Of a stretch of DNA of 20,000 nucleotides, positions 2,460-20,000 are shown one piece after another. Location: IMG/VR virus record IMGVR_UViG_3300006213_000874; one strand, 5' to 3'. Each line of letters begins with the position of its first letter. The stretch's first letter is position 1. Origin of the DNA: an uncultured virus (IMG/VR IMGVR_UViG_3300006213_000874). Lineage: Duplodnaviria; Heunggongvirae; Uroviricota; Caudoviricetes. Below the pieces are notes generated by a model. The model searched no databases and was not told where the DNA came from. It worked only from the letters and a program-made list of their open reading frames with translations. Position numbers and translations under genes: made by a program.

Positions 2460-2488
2460 AGTATAACAGCCTCTTGTGGGAATGTCAA
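2460..2488 (-). promoter_or_regulatory. Antisense SigA promoter
   Basis: Minus strand reads TTGACA-ttcccacaagaggctgt(17 bp)-TATACT with extended -10 TG. Confidence 0.7.
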
Positions 2489-2511
2489 ACATTTTCATAG
2501 GAGGTTTTTAT

Positions 2512-3123
2512 ATGGATGATTTAATGATTAAAAATGTGGATGTATTTGGCGATAGCATAATGGCTGTAAAAGACAAAGACGGGAACATATGGGCCGGTGT
2601 TAGCTACTTTTGTCGTGCGCTTGGAATGGATAAAAAGCAGAAAGACAATCAGGTAGAGAGAGTGCAGCAAGACGACGTATTAAAGAGGGGTGCCGGTAAA
2701 TTTCCGGCAGGGGTATTCGACCCAGCAAATGAAGCAGTTGCGCTTCGCATTGACTTCGTTCCAATATGGCTTACAAAAATTAGAATAACTCCAAAAATGA
2801 AAAATGAACGCCCGGAACTTGCGGAGAAACTACTGAATTACCAATTGAAAGCCAAAGACATCCTTGCCGACGCTTTCCTCCCAAACAGGGAGCCGGAACA
2901 AACCCAGGTATGCAATCCATCCGAAATCCAGTTAGGAGAACTTGCAAGCTATCTTAAAATCATGGACAAGGTAGCGAACCGCCAGAATCTCGCATCTTAT
3001 AAGATTGCAGAGAACTTCAAGAGAGTGTCGGAGCAGTTCGGCGTACAGCTTTCAGATGATTTTGTGAACGTGCCGGAATATGTGCAGCAGACCCTTAAAC
3101 TTGAGGGAGGTGCGGCAAAATGA
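2512..3123 (+). CDS. Phage antirepressor with a P22 Ant N-terminal-like domain
   Basis: RBS AGGAGG before ATG 2512; IKNVDVFGDSIMAVK..IWAGVSYFCRALGM..Q..RVQQDDVL...LRIDFVPIWLTKI...LLNYQLKAKDILADAF matches the P22_AR_N pattern from memory. Confidence 0.75.
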   Translation: MDDLMIKNVDVFGDSIMAVKDKDGNIWAGVSYFCRALGMDKKQKDNQVERVQQDDVLKRGAGKFPAGVFDPANEAVALRIDFVPIWLTKIRITPKMKNERPELAEKLLNYQLKAKDILADAFLPNREPEQTQVCNPSEIQLGELASYLKIMDKVANRQNLASYKIAENFKRVSEQFGVQLSDDFVNVPEYVQQTLKLEGGAAK

Positions 3124-3299
3124 CCGAAAAACAGAAAAAGGAATACGCAGACGCTCTGAAAGACAGAACAAAGGAGTTTTTAGACCGCATAGGCACTGAC
3201 GACGATGAGGGGCAGCGCATTATCAAGCTGATTTACTTCTTTGCCCGCAGCGGATTTAAGGAGTATGGGGCTGGAAGAAAGGCGGTGCAGCATGAGTAA
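3120..3299 (+). CDS. Small hypothetical protein, 59 aa (not in the ORF track)
   Basis: ATGA overlap with the antirepressor stop, RBS GGAGGTG; MTEKQKKEYADALKDRTKEFLDRIGTDDDEGQRIIKLIYFFARSGFKEYGAGRKAVQHE*. Confidence 0.7.
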   Translation: MTEKQKKEYADALKDRTKEFLDRIGTDDDEGQRIIKLIYFFARSGFKEYGAGRKAVQHE

Positions 3300-3540
3300 A
3301 ATCAAAGAAACCATAACCGCCGTGTCTGCCGGGAATGAACCGGGAGCGGTCAGGATCAAGAGAGAAGAACAAGAACGGATGCCAGAATGGTATTTTGCTA
3401 CGGCTATGAAATGCGCTGTTGTAATCGCCGCGATAGCTGCCGCAACTGCAATTATCATATTTGCAGACTTATGGAAAGTTCTTGCTTTGATTGTAGCTGG
3501 GATTTTTTATACTTTGATTTACTTTGCGTTGCAGAATTAG
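3292..3540 (+). CDS. Small membrane protein with two C-terminal TM helices
   Basis: RBS AAGGCGGTG, ATG 3292 overlaps the upstream gene end; hydrophobic CAVVIAAIAAATAIIIFADLWKVLALIVAGIFYTLIYFAL. Confidence 0.65.
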   Translation: MSKIKETITAVSAGNEPGAVRIKREEQERMPEWYFATAMKCAVVIAAIAAATAIIIFADLWKVLALIVAGIFYTLIYFALQN

Positions 3541-3547
3541 GGGGGGG

Positions 3548-3718
3548 GTGCACAGAGCGAAACAAATAGAGAGCGAACATACAATGAAATGGAGAAAAGA
3601 GCAGATTAAGAATATGGTGTATGGGATGAACGCAAACTGTTGCGTCATAAACATGATATACGGATTTGCCAGAAAATGTTTTGAGATATCCAGAGAAAAG
3701 GCAAAAGAAAAATTATAA
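3548..3718 (+). CDS. Small hypothetical protein, likely paralogue of 3120..3299; start uncertain (GTG 3548 or ATG 3584)
   Basis: VINMIYGFARKCFE resembles IIKLIYFFARSGFK of the 3120 ORF; ends just before a terminator. Confidence 0.55.
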   Translation: MHRAKQIESEHTMKWRKEQIKNMVYGMNANCCVINMIYGFARKCFEISREKAKEKL

Positions 3719-3733
3719 AGTGGTTATTGCAAA

Positions 3734-3763
3734 AGGCGTCTTCTTGGGAAGACGTCTTTTTTA
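3734..3763 (+). terminator. Intrinsic terminator
   Basis: AGGCGTCTTC-TTGG-GAAGACGTCT followed by a T run. Confidence 0.8.
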
Positions 3764-3812
3764 TGCCCATTTTTAAATTATCGAAATAAAAATCATAGAG
3801 GAGGAAAATGAT

Positions 3813-4460
3813 ATGTTGGTAGAAATGAGGAAGCTCAACAAAAGAGAAATCAATGTTGTCACAAGCCTTGATGTGGCTGAAACATTTGAAAAGGAACATA
3901 AGAACGTATTGAGGGATATAAGAGAATTACCTTGTAGCGAAGAATTTCGACTGCTCAATTTTGTGCCGTCGGAATATCTAAATCAGCAGAACCACAAGCA
4001 GCCAATGTATTACATTACAAGAGACGGATTTACTCTTTTAGTCATGGGTTACACCGGCGAAAAGGCTATGAAATTTAAGGAGGCTTACATAAGACAGTTC
4101 AATGCTATGGAGGCTACACTGCAAGGAAAGCTGATTGAGCGAGAAAAAGGAATCGTAGTCCGGCAAGCATTTACGAAAGCGTTAAAAGAAAGCGGAGAGA
4201 ACGAAAGAACGCACGGACACGCTTATTCGCTTTACACGGACTTGATTTACAAGGCAGTTTTCGGGAAGAACGCCAAACAGCTAAGAGAGGAATATGGAAT
4301 AGCAAAACAGGACAATCTAATAGATTGCTTTGCCCAGGAAGAACTCGCAAAGGTAAAATCTGTTGAAATGGTTGTCAGCGGTCTTGTAGATTGTGGTTGG
4401 GGATATGATGATGTGAAGGGTTTTATAACCAACAGCACAAGAAAGTTGATTGCAGCTTAA
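3813..4460 (+). CDS. rha: Rha-family phage regulatory protein
   Basis: Signature VTSLDVAETFEKEHKNVLRDI...PMYYITRDGFTLLVMGYTGEKAMKFKEAYIRQFNAME; RBS GAGGAGG. Confidence 0.9.
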   Translation: MLVEMRKLNKREINVVTSLDVAETFEKEHKNVLRDIRELPCSEEFRLLNFVPSEYLNQQNHKQPMYYITRDGFTLLVMGYTGEKAMKFKEAYIRQFNAMEATLQGKLIEREKGIVVRQAFTKALKESGENERTHGHAYSLYTDLIYKAVFGKNAKQLREEYGIAKQDNLIDCFAQEELAKVKSVEMVVSGLVDCGWGYDDVKGFITNSTRKLIAA

Positions 4461-14969: not shown

Positions 14970-14985
14970 ATAGGAGTTGGTTTTT

Positions 14986-16095
14986 ATGGACAAGGCTTAC
15001 ACAAGGATACATTGGGAAAATAGCCCAAGCACAAAAACGGCTCTTGGAGCAATGAACCTGAATCGAACGGACTATGCTATAGACGAGATTGACAACCGGG
15101 TTATGCGTCACGACAACGAAAAGGCGGACAAAACCGAAATCCTGAACCTTGTCAACGGCTGGACAATGGACGAACAGACCGGAATCATAACGGTCACGAA
15201 AGTCAATGGGGAAAGATTGATATTCGACCTGAATATCGAGAAAATACCAGTCAACTTTGAACTGTCTCCAGAGGGAATCCTAACCATGACAACCGCTGAT
15301 GGAACACGGTTTACGGCAAATATCGGCGCGATGATTCCGATGCTTGAGTTTGAAAGCACCGATACGATTGCAGTTTCTGTAACGGGAGAGGGGGTCAACA
15401 AGACATATTCCTTTTTCGTAAAAGACGGGAGCATAACAGAGGATAAGCTGCAGCCGAACTTTCTTGCGGATGTTACTGTACAGGCGGAAAACGCGTCCGC
15501 AGCAGCAACGGCGGCGGCAGATTCGGCAAGGGCAGCAAAAGATTCTGAAACCAATGCGGCACGGTCGGCGGCAGATGCAGCAGCGTCTGCACTGGCGGCA
15601 CAGGAGTCAAAGGTTGCGGCGGCAGAATCAGAAGCAGCAGCAAAGCGTTCCGAAGAAGCATCGGAAGTTTCACAACAGGCGGCAGCGGCGTCGGAAGTGG
15701 CGGCAAAGGAATCGGAAGAAGCCGCAAAACTGTCCGAAACCAATGCAGCAGAGTCCGAAACCAATGCGGCGGCATCCGAACGAACGGCACTGGAAAAAGC
15801 GGAAGAAGCGTCGGACAGCGCAGACCTGTCAAAGTCCTATGCGGTCGGAGGAACTGGAACGAGACCCGGGGAAGACACAGATAACTCGGAGTATTACAGC
15901 AATCAATCGAAAGAGTATTTAAATAAGGTAGAAACTGCTGGCGAAAACGCCCTTGAAACGATTAAAAACGCTTTAAAAGCAGCAAAACCGGAATTTGTGA
16001 CAAACGTACAGAACGGCCACCTTTATTACAAGGGCGGGCGTTTTTTCTTTCTGGTTGATGAAAACGGGCATTTGAGATGGAGGGTGATGATTTGA
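14986..16095 (+). CDS. Upper tail fibre protein with Ala/Ser/Glu coiled-coil repeats
   Basis: RBS AGGAG, ATG 14986; YTRIHWENSPSTKTALGAMNLN N-terminus; SETNAAxSE repeats at about 15480-15830; SKSYAVGGTGTRPGEDTDNSEYY motif. Confidence 0.8.
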   Translation: MDKAYTRIHWENSPSTKTALGAMNLNRTDYAIDEIDNRVMRHDNEKADKTEILNLVNGWTMDEQTGIITVTKVNGERLIFDLNIEKIPVNFELSPEGILTMTTADGTRFTANIGAMIPMLEFESTDTIAVSVTGEGVNKTYSFFVKDGSITEDKLQPNFLADVTVQAENASAAATAAADSARAAKDSETNAARSAADAAASALAAQESKVAAAESEAAAKRSEEASEVSQQAAAASEVAAKESEEAAKLSETNAAESETNAAASERTALEKAEEASDSADLSKSYAVGGTGTRPGEDTDNSEYYSNQSKEYLNKVETAGENALETIKNALKAAKPEFVTNVQNGHLYYKGGRFFFLVDENGHLRWRVMI

Positions 16096-17627
16096 ACGAG
16101 GAAAAAATGGATGAGCTGCTTCGTCTGATGCGGGCCATTGTTCCTGACACGTCCGATATGAGTGACGCCGGAAAAGTTGGGTTTGTATATAAATTTGATT
16201 ATGACCCGGCAGCGCCTTATGAAAAGCTTGATGTAGTTAAATACGGAATGTCCTTATGGACGCCAAAAACGGACACGATCGGGAACCCGCCGCCCGATCA
16301 GTCACAATACGGTCAAGAAGATGCGCAAGAGAATGATTTTTGGGTTTTGTTCCTACCTGGCGCCCTTGGAAGCGAATATGTTAAAAAGACCGATATATCC
16401 GCCCCTCCTACCGAAACCGAATCAGGAAAGCCCGGGGTAAATTATCCGGACGGCAAGACAATTACAATTGACGAAAACGGGATGCTTACGGGGGCGCCTA
16501 CAGGCAGGTCGCTTACAAAAGAAGAAATGAACACACAGCTTTCAGATGGAACGTTGGAAGACGGGAGCGCAGTGTACCTTTCCGGTAATGAGCAGGACGG
16601 CGACCGCGGGAATATGGTGGGGCTTATCATAGACGGGCAGTTTGTCCCGTATGGTATGGTAGGACTGCGCGACGGGGTTCCGGTATACCTGTTCAACACC
16701 TATGAGGAATACGAAGCGGCAAAGCCTAACCTGGTAGACCCATGCGTGTTCATTACGCTTGACGACCTTGATACGGGCGGCTGGACGTTTGATGATGCGC
16801 TTGATCCGGAGTCTGAGAATGCGGTGCAGAACAAGGCTTTGTATGCTTATATAAGTGGGATCATGACAATGGAAGATCCTATATCATTTAATGGAGGCGC
16901 CGGATATCACAATTCGATTTTTCGAGGAAAATATCTTGGTGATACACTGACGCAAGAGCAGGTAGCAGAAATTGAAGCTGGAACATTCAAGGATATGTTT
17001 GTTGGTGACTACTGGACAATCGGTGGGGTGAATTACCGCATTGCCCATCTTGATTACTGGCTGCGGTGCGGGGATGCAGAATGCACGAAGCACCATGCCG
17101 TCATAGTTCCTGACACCTGCCTGTATAATGCACAGATGCATAACACTGCATCCGGGCAGTATGAGGGCGGAGCAGCCAACACAACAGAGGGCGGCTATAT
17201 CGGTTCTGATATGTATAAAACGGGGCTTAACCAGGCAAAAACTATAATCAATAACGCTTTCGGCTCGGCGCATATATTGTCACACAGGGAACTGTTGGTA
17301 AATGCCGTCACAAATGGCAGGCCGAGCAACAATGTATGGTATGACAGCACCGTGGAATTAATGAATGAGCCTATGGTATACGGCAGCTATATTTTTACTC
17401 CGGCGCATGATGGCACGGTGATTTCATACCGTTACACCATTGACAAGTCACAGTTGGCGTTATTCGCATTGCGCCCGGATTTAATCTGTAACCGTGTGGG
17501 CTGGTGGTTGCGTGACGTTGTTTCGGGCGCTCATTTTGCCAATGTGTACTGGCACGGCCATGCGGACTGCTACTACGCTTCCAACGCTTTTGGCGTGCGC
17601 CCGGCTTTCGGGGTTTGCGGATCTTGA
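16092..17627 (+). CDS. Tail fibre / receptor-binding protein with a C-terminal CLec-like (DGR-target-type) domain
   Basis: RBS GGAGGGTG, TTG 16092 overlapping the upstream stop (alternative ATG 16077); HNSIFRGKYLG..GTFKDMFVGDYW..YRIAHLDY..HAVIVPD; ends WWLRDVVSGAHFANVYWHGHADCYYASNAFGVRPAF. Confidence 0.8.
   Translation: MNEEKMDELLRLMRAIVPDTSDMSDAGKVGFVYKFDYDPAAPYEKLDVVKYGMSLWTPKTDTIGNPPPDQSQYGQEDAQENDFWVLFLPGALGSEYVKKTDISAPPTETESGKPGVNYPDGKTITIDENGMLTGAPTGRSLTKEEMNTQLSDGTLEDGSAVYLSGNEQDGDRGNMVGLIIDGQFVPYGMVGLRDGVPVYLFNTYEEYEAAKPNLVDPCVFITLDDLDTGGWTFDDALDPESENAVQNKALYAYISGIMTMEDPISFNGGAGYHNSIFRGKYLGDTLTQEQVAEIEAGTFKDMFVGDYWTIGGVNYRIAHLDYWLRCGDAECTKHHAVIVPDTCLYNAQMHNTASGQYEGGAANTTEGGYIGSDMYKTGLNQAKTIINNAFGSAHILSHRELLVNAVTNGRPSNNVWYDSTVELMNEPMVYGSYIFTPAHDGTVISYRYTIDKSQLALFALRPDLICNRVGWWLRDVVSGAHFANVYWHGHADCYYASNAFGVRPAFGVCGS
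17490..17609 (+). other. Candidate DGR variable region (VR)
   Basis: Positions expected to vary use NNY codons (GGC, CAT, TAC, CAC, CAT, GAC, TGC, TAC, TAC, TTT) reachable from AAY by adenine mutagenesis; ends in GC-rich GGCGTGCGCCCGGC. No TR or RT in the window. Confidence 0.55.
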
Positions 17628-17716
17628 AAATATGAAGCATTTGGATATTTACTATAAATATTAAAATAAATTTTTTCGATATAGTCAAGTATCGCTTGAT
17701 ATAGGATAGGAGGCAT

Positions 17717-18223
17717 ATGAGCATTTCAATACTAGAAAATGGCACACGGCACAAAATCCAAACTTGGTCTTTGCCGGACGAAAAAATAGATAAAAACAGC
17801 AAAAATGCTGTTTCGAATAATGCAGTAGCGAAAGCGCTAGAACAGATGAAAGACGGAGTCGCGGAACAGGCCGAGTCTTTGGATGCTAAAATTCGGGCCA
17901 ATTCACATAATGTGTCTGAGATTAGCAAGCTTATACAAAAGTTTACGCGATATGATGGCAGGACGGATATGTATGTAGGCGACCTGGATGATTTAAGGGA
18001 AAACAGCATCTACAACTGCAATGAAAGCACGCTGCATGCACCAAAAAAGTTCACAAACTGGTTTTTTGTTGTTACTTTTGTCCACACACCAAATAATGAT
18101 TATGTTGCTCAGGTTGCGATACACATGAATGGCCCGGGCGGAAGCACGCCAATCGCAATCCGGAACTGTGGCAGCGGAGTTTGGGGAAGATGGCGTTATA
18201 TAGCAGTGCAAGAGGAGGAGTAA
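17717..18223 (+). CDS. Short tail-fibre protein with pyocin-knob-like C-terminus (intact, no poly-G)
   Basis: RBS AGGAGG; DLDDLRENSIYNC..HAP..WFFVVTF..YVAQVA..IRN..VWGRWR knob pattern; leader MSISILENGTRHKI resembles the downstream leaders. Confidence 0.75.
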   Translation: MSISILENGTRHKIQTWSLPDEKIDKNSKNAVSNNAVAKALEQMKDGVAEQAESLDAKIRANSHNVSEISKLIQKFTRYDGRTDMYVGDLDDLRENSIYNCNESTLHAPKKFTNWFFVVTFVHTPNNDYVAQVAIHMNGPGGSTPIAIRNCGSGVWGRWRYIAVQEEE

Positions 18224-18225
18224 CA

Positions 18226-18736
18226 ATGGGAATATACATGCAAAATAACAATGTAGTTCATCGGCTGGACGGAAATGGCGGGGGGGGGCATTCTTGAAAG
18301 AATAGAAAAAATTGAAGAAAAAATAAAGCAAATGAATTTTGAAATGTCCGAAAAACTTCCTATTAATATGGTAACAAATAGAACAGATATAACGGAAGCT
18401 GGGTATGCAGCAGACGCACGGCAGTTGAATCCGGCGCTGCCAGAAACACTTTCCGCAAAATTGCAAGATATTTTAAAATACCCACGGATCCGGAAGATTG
18501 TCGAAATTGCAGCCGCTTCCGGAAAGCCATTAGATTCAGGAAGTTATATATCAGTAAATGTAGATTTAACGCCATATGGATTTCTAAAGAAGCCATATGC
18601 GTTCTTAAAGCATACAACGTGGCTTGCGGTTCATTCCATCATCGTAACAAATGTGAATGCACATGTTACGCTTACAAATCCATACAATGATGCACATGAC
18701 GATTCGGCATCGTTTATATTGATAGAATTTTTATGA
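18226..18736 (+). CDS. Poly-G-interrupted tail-fibre/RBP gene A (out of frame at G9; G8 gives 169 aa)
   Basis: RBS GAGGAGGAG, ATG 18226; MGIYMQNNNVVHRLDGNGGGGHS* stops at 18297; the +1 frame continues ILERIEKIEE..ITEAGYAADARQLN to 18736. Confidence 0.75.
18280..18288 (+). repeat. G9 homopolymer, candidate phase-variation tract A
   Basis: AATGGC-GGGGGGGGG-CATTC. Confidence 0.9.
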
Positions 18737-18748
18737 AAGGGGATAACA

Positions 18749-19295
18749 ATGGGGTTATACATACACCAAAACAACACCGCAACCCCGATCGGGGGGGGGC
18801 GTAAGCAAAATAATATTAGACCGAATAACGGCATTAGAATCAGGCCTTGAAACGGTAAACCATGCATTGTCTTTAAAACTTGACTTGGACAAGGTAACAC
18901 AAAGCGATTCCATAACAGAACGTGGCTATGCGGTTGATGCAAGAGAATTAAACGCTTCGCTTAGCGGAACGGTTGCGAATAAAACGGAAAGAATTAATGA
19001 ATCTCTTTCCGGATGCAGCAGGCTTTTTGGGGGCCAGATGATAAACAGAGGATCGGATTTAAATGATTATTTAAGTCCTGGAAATTATTATTGCAGTTCG
19101 AATGCGATCGCAGGAACGTTGAAAAACTCTCCTATAGTCGATGCATTTACAATGAAAGTGGAATTTGCTACAGGTGTGGCATATCCATGTCAAACCTTGC
19201 GGGATTTTATTATCGGAACATTGTATTACAGGGTTTTTAATCCTTTTAAAAACCAGTGGACGGCATGGAAAAAAATAGATCTGGTTCCGATTTAG
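18749..19295 (+). CDS. Poly-G-interrupted tail-fibre/RBP gene B with pyocin-knob-like domain (out of frame at G9; G8 gives 181 aa)
   Basis: RBS AAGGGGA, ATG 18749; MGLYIHQNNTATPIGGG then stop at 18850; the +1 frame reads VSKIILDRITALESGL..ITERGYAVDARELN..DLNDYLSPGNYYC..WTAWKKI. Confidence 0.8.
18791..18799 (+). repeat. G9 homopolymer, candidate phase-variation tract B
   Basis: CCGATC-GGGGGGGGG-CGTAAG. Confidence 0.9.
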
Positions 19296-19313
19296 AACAG
19301 AAAGAGAGGAAAA

Positions 19314-19876
19314 ATGGGATTATATGTAAAAAATAACGGATCAGAAAAGAAAATCGGGGGGGGGCAGGACAGGCCGTACTAAACCGCATTGCGGCGCTGG
19401 AATCGGGGCTTGAAAGCGTAAGGCGGTCCCTGGCAGGCAAGCTGGATTTAAATAATGTGACACAGGGAACATCTATAACGGAGGCCGGATGGGCCGCGGA
19501 TGCGCGGCAGATGAACTCTGCTTATCCAGGCAGCATCGCAGAAAAGGTGGAAGGGAATGCCGGCAGGATATCGGCACTTTCATTCCGGTTTGCATTAAAG
19601 GCTGAAGTGGCAGGGAATGGGGAGACAACGGATATAACACTGCCGTCATACGGCGTGTATATCCTGATTTCGCATCATGGCGGCGTATGGACGACACTGG
19701 AGGGGATGGCATATATTTCCTGCAGCCCGTACCAGGATGCATATGTGGCTGAAAAAATATTTGGGCGTTATGACTTTGACGCTATGGAAATGTCTATAGA
19801 CACAGGGACAAGGGTTTTATCGGTTAAAAACCATTGCGCATCCGGATCCAATATTTATTTATATCAAATACTATAG
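19314..19876 (+). CDS. Poly-G-interrupted tail-fibre/RBP gene C (out of frame at G9; G10 gives 187 aa)
   Basis: RBS GAGAGGA, ATG 19314; MGLYVKNNGSEKKIGGGQDRPY* stops at 19382; the -1 frame reads AGQAVLNRIAALESGL..ITEAGWAADARQMN to 19876. Confidence 0.8.
19356..19364 (+). repeat. G9 homopolymer, candidate phase-variation tract C
   Basis: AAAATC-GGGGGGGGG-CAGGAC. Confidence 0.9.
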
Positions 19877-19894
19877 ACGGAAAGGGGCGGCAAT

Positions 19895-20000
19895 ATGAAT
19901 TTGTATATACAAAAAAACGGAAAGGCGGGCGAAATTGGGGGGGGGTAATAAAAACCCTTATAGACCGTATGGCGGCACTTGAGTCAGGTCTTGCAGGCCT
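19895..20000 (+). CDS. Poly-G-interrupted tail-fibre/RBP gene D, partial (out of frame at G9; G10 restores the frame)
   Basis: RBS AAAGGGG, ATG 19895; MNLYIQKNGKAGEIGGG* stops at 19948; the -1 frame reads VIKTLIDRMAALESGLAG to the window edge. Confidence 0.75.
19937..19945 (+). repeat. G9 homopolymer, candidate phase-variation tract D
   Basis: GAAATT-GGGGGGGGG-TAATAA. Confidence 0.9.

Follow-up and report, generated by a model that had tools for sequence, protein, structure and literature searches.

Hypermutable polyG tracts in genes for receptor-binding proteins (RBPs) of Campylobacter Fletchervirus phages were reportedly described by Sorensen et al. in Cell Rep in 2021 (35:109214). Two sources give tracts of 7-11 G in the RBP genes of these phages and up to four RBPs (10.1101/2025.10.21.683753; PMC10877375), and one of them presents surface-structure genes of Campylobacter jejuni as poly-G simple-sequence contingency loci (PMC10877375). 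Gomez, Barrick and Waters (10.1101/2025.10.21.683753) describe contingency loci in coliphages T2 and T4, report that repeats of at least 6 bp are under-represented in the tail-fibre genes of 41 BASEL coliphages, and mention polyG tracts in BPP-1 and PB1-like phages. The G segment of phage Mu, an invertible tail-fibre segment, is cited in PMC12823448. The principle considered here is not new: poly-G phase variation of RBPs has already been described for Campylobacter phages. For phages of Gram-positive gut bacteria we found no report of poly-G tracts in the literature, of which our full-text coverage was limited. Here we describe a 20,000-nucleotide stretch of DNA from an uncultured virus (IMG/VR record IMGVR_UViG_3300006213_000874), hereafter the window, that ends in a tandem array of four small genes, A to D. 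We consider it likely that these genes are poly-G contingency loci in which slipped-strand mispairing gates alternative receptor-binding tips, and random variation of the host-binding tips is the probable outcome.

All four genes lie on the plus strand and share one layout, which we read from the sequence between positions 17900 and 20000: a leader that starts with an ATG, a run of exactly nine Gs (G9) that begins 14-18 codons later, and a body. Gene A (18226..18736) consists of a leader at 18226-18279 (MGIYMQNNNVVHRLDGN), the G9 tract at 18280-18288, and a body at 18289-18736. Gene B (18749..19295) has its leader at 18749-18790, its tract at 18791-18799, and a body with a C-terminal knob at 18800-19295; in gene C (19314..19876), the corresponding parts are at 19314-19355, 19356-19364, and 19365-19876. 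Gene D starts at 19895, with its leader at 19895-19936 and its tract at 19937-19945, and reaches the window end at 20000; its body continues to the equivalent of 20052 in a 108,939-bp virus record (G001) that shares all sampled sequence words with the window, ends in direct terminal repeats, and is classed as complete. Each leader ATG is separated from the previous stop by 2-18 nt and is preceded by a purine-rich, Shine-Dalgarno-like stretch. Inside the array, we found no excess of promoters or terminators. The window, with five G9 tracts in total, contains 10 overlapping matches to a run of eight Gs (G8) where 0.54 were expected, and 10 or more such matches occurred in none of 200 shuffles.

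The reading frames that start at the four leaders terminate after 23, 33, 22, and 17 residues in A, B, C, and D, respectively. In a frame test, the full-length open reading frames (ORFs) of A and B open at G8 or G11, giving products of 169 and 181 residues, and those of C and D open at G7 or G10, giving 186 or 187 residues for C and approximately 52 for D. A change of a single unit in tract length toggles the full-length ORF, which is the behavior that characterizes a poly-G contingency locus, and all four genes carry within the reading frame a homopolymer longer than the approximately seven units at which such loci are called. An earlier sequence-only reading of this DNA had proposed the four starts, the exact G9 tracts, the out-of-frame bodies, and the lengths of the truncated peptides, and all of these were reproduced on re-reading and in the frame test, as was its placement of a ribosome-binding site shortly after each preceding stop.

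The same reading had noted that ORF calls miss the true starts, and for gene A this is the case: gene callers take an internal ATG at 18275, directly 5' of the tract, which shares the frame of the body at G9 (MAGGGILERI...). The frame-switched design thus explains mis-started gene calls. If translation is initiated at such an ATG, a leaderless body could be produced in the OFF state. Two proteins found in the searches described below, P0004 (MWGG...) and P0012 (MGGG...), likewise have their start directly at the glycine run.

An exhaustive profile search returned 2963 hits, among which we examined the 90% clusters of small relatives, and three of the four gene types were found there both with the leader in frame with the body (ON) and out of frame (OFF). 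The A-like clusters include two OFF forms at G9, P0034 (11 contigs; starts MAGGG...) and P0157, which is the window's own allele (10 contigs), and one ON form at G8, P0159 (169 residues; 1 contig), with a leader identical to that of the window's A; P0159 and P0034 have identical 148-residue bodies, and that of P0157 is the same or nearly so. The B-like pair, a relative 75% identical to the window's B, comprises P0004 (OFF, G9, 9 contigs) and P0161 (ON, G8, 4 contigs), again with identical bodies, here of 166 residues; these two lengths assume G at third codon positions.

The most extensive series comes from a C-like allele that is 90% identical to the window's C and whose forms occupy all three upstream frames. 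Only one leader DNA is left by a back-translation that has to meet all three frames, and it assigns G7 to P0166 (ON, 2 contigs), G10 to P0170 (ON, 1 contig), G8 to P0163 and P0172 (OFF, 12+1 contigs), G9 to P0165 and P0027 (OFF, 9+2 contigs), and G11 to P0168 (OFF, 1 contig). The 170-residue bodies are identical across these G7-G11 forms, except for one residue in P0172. A further OFF form, P0169 (1 contig), has no assigned length: a valine breaks its glycine run (..RRVGAGQ..), which points to a base substitution that splits the tract and would stabilize the OFF frame. Together, the A-, B-, and C-like forms amount to 64 contig counts. Kept apart from them are the fragment P0158 (1 contig), P0012 and P0162 (2+1), and the window's own B alleles (P0003 and P0160; 2+12) and C alleles (P0164, P0167, P0171, and P0173; 11+2+1+1) as called from internal starts, all of these alleles being out of frame with unreadable tract length.

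Otherwise identical alleles, ON and OFF forms included, are therefore polymorphic for tract length, the lengths being read from proteins except at a tract at position 3540 (see below), where the DNA itself varies. Individual length variants are found on several contigs (12, 9, 9, 4, and so on), with Logan, ENA, NCBI, and JGI as the sources. Variation of tract length between homologues had been anticipated from the window alone, together with two outcomes that would have spoken against switching, namely lengths fixed at G8, G8, G10, and G10 or a linker of mixed GGN codons without length variation; neither was found. In addition, P0023, P0028, and P0043 carry an MSIS-type leader in frame, followed by two or three glycines and then the coiled coil; these relatives indicate that the fused leader-body architecture is the functional form. 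Among seven proteins (six of them not the window's own) retrieved by a word-based search with the read-through product of B, no leader-bearing match was present.

What do the switched genes encode? The leader peptide (MG[ILV]Y[IMV]...) is conserved across diverged DNA, and the alignment between A and the C-like ON form (BLASTP E value 1e-20) spans both leader and body; this conservation at the protein level and the inclusion of the leader in the alignment show that the leader is coding. The family has a common layout of leader, glycine linker, a coiled coil with the motif L-x-R-I-x-x-L-E, a collar with the motif ITExGYAxDARxLN, and tips that differ between members. Neither the A, B, and C bodies nor the ON forms matched Pfam. 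The structural model of the B body has a mean predicted local distance difference test (pLDDT) score of 71 and of approximately 88 over the tip, and Foldseek matched this tip to the fiber knobs of R2 and R1 pyocins (6cl6 with an E value of 1.1e-5, 6ct8, and 6cl5; range, 1.1e-5 to 1.4e-4) over 87-92 aligned columns with 21-24% sequence identity. Weaker matches were to baseplate or RBP chains of phi812, Pa193, NF5, phi11, and 80alpha. For the A tip, the protein atlas gave weak leads only, below 0.9.

A homotrimer model of P0161 scored 0.87, against 0.00 for the best of three controls, with a partner pLDDT of 90; the runs agreed on at least 95% of contacts, and the named interface residues begin at approximately residue 21, after the linker. 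In calibration, 20 of the 30 pairs with solved complexes and 1 of the 23 proteins solved as single chains reached the mark applied to this score; the calibration was made with two copies, so that it holds only roughly for a run with three copies and a custom alignment, and solved fiber trimers may inflate the score. The model supports assembly of the B-type tip as a trimer, and the products of the array look like trimeric fiber-tip proteins. A receptor-binding role in the virion would fit the location of the array, last in the tail module, the pyocin-knob fold of B, and the trimer model, the last two being predictions. The B-type knob, which has no Pfam family, is widespread and occurs in up to seven repeats in proteins of 650-2650 residues (P0010, P0011, P0013, and P0014). 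A prophage of Butyribacter intestini (L065, 4888-6423) encodes a 511-residue tail fiber with a C-terminal collar (TTEEGYVADARQLN) and tip; judged from this sequence, the tip module of the Butyribacter relative is part of a fiber and not a separate small gene.

The natural ON and OFF alleles, the predicted trimeric, fiber-tip-like products, and the position of the genes before the lysis genes all support the proposal, first made from the window alone, of a phase-variable tip array. As contingency loci, the four genes would work as follows. The leader, approximately 15 residues long, would be a docking piece on the fiber or baseplate, and the G run would encode a glycine linker that joins it to the trimeric coiled coil, the collar, and the variable C-terminal tip. 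Slipped-strand mispairing during DNA replication would alter the run one G at a time and shift the body into or out of the leader frame, presumably at a high and reversible rate within one population. The genotype that was sequenced has all four genes OFF at G9; loss of one G would turn A or B ON, and gain of one G would do the same for C or D. With frames toggled in this way, a lysate or a population of lysogens should contain minorities that display extra tips, and the switched tips would be expected to alter host range.

Several observations weigh against this interpretation. The tract lengths of the relatives were inferred from protein N-termini and not from DNA, and ON forms are the minority, with 8 of the 64 contig counts (1 of 22 for the A type, 4 of 13 for the B-like, and 3 of 29 for the C-like forms). 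Exact matches to the ON products of the A and B alleles in the window are absent from a collection of 15 billion proteins. All four array tracts are G9 in the window and in G001 alike, and a deeply covered contig of a sequencing run (X1) shows a single G9 path at each of them, though contigs drop rare variants. The tip of A has no relatives beyond its own cluster. Finally, gene D is a stub: as continued in G001, it has approximately 35 residues after the tract, with the start of the coiled coil and neither collar nor tip. Thus, of the "at least four" genes originally proposed, four are present, but the G001 sequence downstream contains no tract-bearing gene beyond D, where the array stops, and D is a stub of approximately 52 residues. 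The suggestion of at least 2^4 switch states has to be abandoned for the same reason: at most three full tips are switchable.

The preference for one length invites a different explanation, namely programmed recoding, in which G9 itself would be selected, tips would be made at a low level through slippage of RNA polymerase or -1/+1 slippage of the ribosome on the G run, and DNA length variants would be incidental. On a G run, tRNA-Gly can slip either way and still pair perfectly; to our knowledge, however, documented slippage in bacterial transcription concerns A/T runs and not G runs, and the 90-nt segments that follow tracts A, B, and C do not fold better than shuffled sequences (z scores of +1.57, +1.24, and +0.15), leaving no stimulatory structure. 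Five of the six long tracts in G001 are exactly G9, the array tracts have this length in both the window and G001, diverged A-like and C-like alleles share it, and OFF forms dominate (56 of 64 contig counts). Against this, C-like G8 is as common as C-like G9 (13 versus 11 contigs), so G9 is not fixed, and the in-frame variants of three gene types (P0159, P0161, P0166, and P0170) mean that the OFF arrangement is not kept in all homologues. We therefore regard recoding as unlikely. More improbable to us is the notion that the genes are decaying spare cassettes, that is, frameshifted prophage pseudogenes whose tract variation is neutral noise. Such decay would have had to spare bodies of 148-170 codons, which are stop-free and identical across length variants, as well as leaders that retain strong ribosome-binding sites and a conserved peptide, and to hit all four genes precisely at the G run, which is the same structural joint in each. 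It is true that D is truncated, that most copies are OFF, and that the element is temperate and has an integrase, so that its tail genes would seldom be under selection. The C-like length spectrum is also roughly symmetric, as under neutral drift (2, 13, 11, 1, and 1 contigs for G7 to G11); in G001, on the other hand, runs of G6 and G7 are nearly absent and G8 and G9 are in excess.

Least credible of all, in our judgment, is an error of sequencing or assembly that would hide real lengths that are fixed and in frame. Homopolymers are error-prone, and low-depth contig pieces do end at or near the tracts (at 18287 in run X3, at 18800 in X6, and at 18783 and 19340 in X7); our comparison of sequencing runs used contigs, which lose rare variants, and in X3, X6, and X7 contigs do not cover the whole stretch. 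Yet G9 was obtained at every array tract in two assemblies: the Logan contig in X1, which may be the source sample, is 47,507 nt long with a depth of 46 and has no differences from positions 17000-20000 (3,001 bases), so that G9 is not the product of one assembler. X3 crosses tract B with G9 at a depth of 3.6, the length variants recur across contigs from all four sources named above, and an error would need to act in opposite directions in A and B versus C and D. Slipped-strand switching of the tip genes thus remains the explanation that we favor.

The G-run spectrum of G001 (191 runs of G4, 34 of G5, one of G6, none of G7, one of G8, and five of G9) is bimodal, with a gap and then an excess; the six runs of at least G8 are all on the coding strand, four of the six are in the tip genes, and C runs never exceed 5. 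Over 20,000 bases, the window and G001 are identical except at the fifth tract, which is G9 in the window (3540..3548, plus strand) and G8 in G001. It overlaps the TAG stop of a 99-residue membrane ORF and lies 36 nt 5' of an ATG at 3584. A location of this tract in a promoter spacer was not supported, as no promoter-like site was found across 3540-3548. The sixth tract, a G9 on the reverse strand at 89324-89332 of G001 (L070, approximately 19608-19616), lies in approximately 1 kb without a long ORF. Its flanks are a small-terminase-like ORF, identified by eye from the sequence, and the serine invertase gene (reverse, 90117-90689).

The phage itself is a temperate, siphovirus-like phage of the mouse gut with a genome of 109 kb. 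The gene order around the array is tape measure, DUF6711 protein, 817-residue tail protein, fibers, array, and amidase endolysin. The tape-measure protein, encoded 5' of the array, has 2337 residues and an SLT domain. Two tail-fiber genes for proteins of 372 and 516 residues (14977..17627, plus strand), with PHROG tail-fiber matches, precede the array, and 3' of D, in G001, are genes for a 130-residue protein, a small protein, and an Amidase_2 endolysin; the first two presumably resemble XkdW and XkdX. With tail genes on its 5' side and the endolysin on its 3' side, the array stands at the very end of the tail module. Directly 5' of it is a gene for a 168-residue protein (17717..18223, plus strand) that has no G tract and begins with MSISILENG..., like the MSIS-type leaders of the in-frame relatives; this protein may be a constitutive tip. 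It could not be established as a clear paralogue, the hhalign comparison with the family giving a nonsignificant E value of 0.05. In run X3, a 16,427-nt contig with a depth of 42 is 85% identical to positions 17000-17611 (91 differences) and diverges after 17611; a related phage in the same study thus has another region 3' of the gene for the 516-residue fiber.

Among the genes of G001 are those for a tyrosine integrase, whose DNA-binding domain is of the Tn916 type, for RecT, and for a serine invertase, which is approximately 58 kb away from the array. Dispersed over the genome are at least six Ant/Rha-type anti-repressor paralogues, three HNH endonucleases, and a MazF-like ORF; two of the anti-repressor genes lie between the virion genes and the tape-measure gene (2476-4460 in the window). 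A scan of 114 of the 167 ORFs predicted in G001 found no DNA polymerase, from which we infer that the host replisome would perform the slipping. The assignment to a Firmicutes host in the sequence-only reading stands as a hint, drawn from the Tn916-type integrase domain and the one relative in a Butyribacter prophage.

Searches for homologous arrays gave little. Among 50,697 phage records, neither positions 16000-20000 (blastn) nor P0165 (tblastn) had a match. IMG/VR scans with the B body, with alignment A2, and with P0170 found no relative, and a scan with alignment A3 found one locus (L067). When IMG/VR was scanned for a leader followed by G8 or longer, 11 stretches were returned, none with a body and all of them chance matches. 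Genome contigs yielded nothing with A2 and two loci with A3, in which the sole relevant feature was the Butyribacter fiber collar; metagenome contigs yielded four loci with A2, all with the B-type knob only and without a G run of at least 7. Knob-only matches were present in 4 of the 401 genomes of the G002 family. The 49 IMG/VR relatives of the 516-residue fiber had no tblastn hits to the A-D bodies or the 168-residue protein, and these loci (722,807 bases) contain only 8 G/C runs of at least 7, in 7 loci.

A more specific arrangement can be put forward tentatively, although we rather doubt it: a two-way switchboard with an all-OFF hub at G9, from which contraction by one G would lead to the A or B tip and expansion by one G to C (and the stub D). 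If so, the direction of slippage would decide which class of tip is shown beside a constitutive one, and a temperate gut phage of a Gram-positive anaerobe would have a heritable and reversible bet-hedging host range. The two noncoding G8/G9 tracts would then carry switching into regulation.

How does the array compare with the systems described previously? It shares with Fletchervirus phages long G runs in RBP genes (candidate RBP genes in this case), several such genes per phage, and, presumably, ON/OFF switching by frameshift that generates sub-populations. Fletchervirus is a lytic Campylobacter myovirus, whereas the phage with the array is a temperate, siphovirus-like gut phage with a probably Gram-positive host. 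The array is also a tandem row of small paralogous tip cassettes, in which the tract is always at the glycine linker between a short putative docking leader and a predicted trimeric body. With the contingency loci of C. jejuni it would have in common slipped-strand mispairing at a coding homopolymer, a 3-periodic ON/OFF pattern, and many loci per genome; unlike those loci, its tracts are in a phage structural module. T2 and T4 would resemble it in having phage-encoded hypermutable repeats as a means of bet-hedging, and in contrast to the BASEL set, the array phage concentrates long tracts in tip genes. The Mu G segment and diversity-generating retroelements likewise vary the receptor-binding end of a fiber stochastically; however, they do so by site-specific inversion and mutagenic retrohoming, respectively, and the array would do so by homopolymer slippage. 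The knobs of R-type pyocins have the same predicted fold as the C-terminal domain of B, although B is a small free-standing tip and not the end of a long fiber, and the tips of A and C carry other domains, with no assigned fold.

As far as is known, experimental work on poly-G phase variation of RBPs concerns lytic Campylobacter phages only, and the array would represent the same logic in an unrelated temperate gut phage, in an unusually clean and modular form: tandem units that each combine a putative docking leader, a linker encoded by the G run, and a trimeric tip that can be exchanged. Public data already contain its natural ON and OFF variants. The array is also a convenient system in which bet-hedging in phage adsorption could be tested. 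Seen beside the Campylobacter systems, it suggests that among gut phages, slippage-driven variation of host range is commoner than published work indicates.

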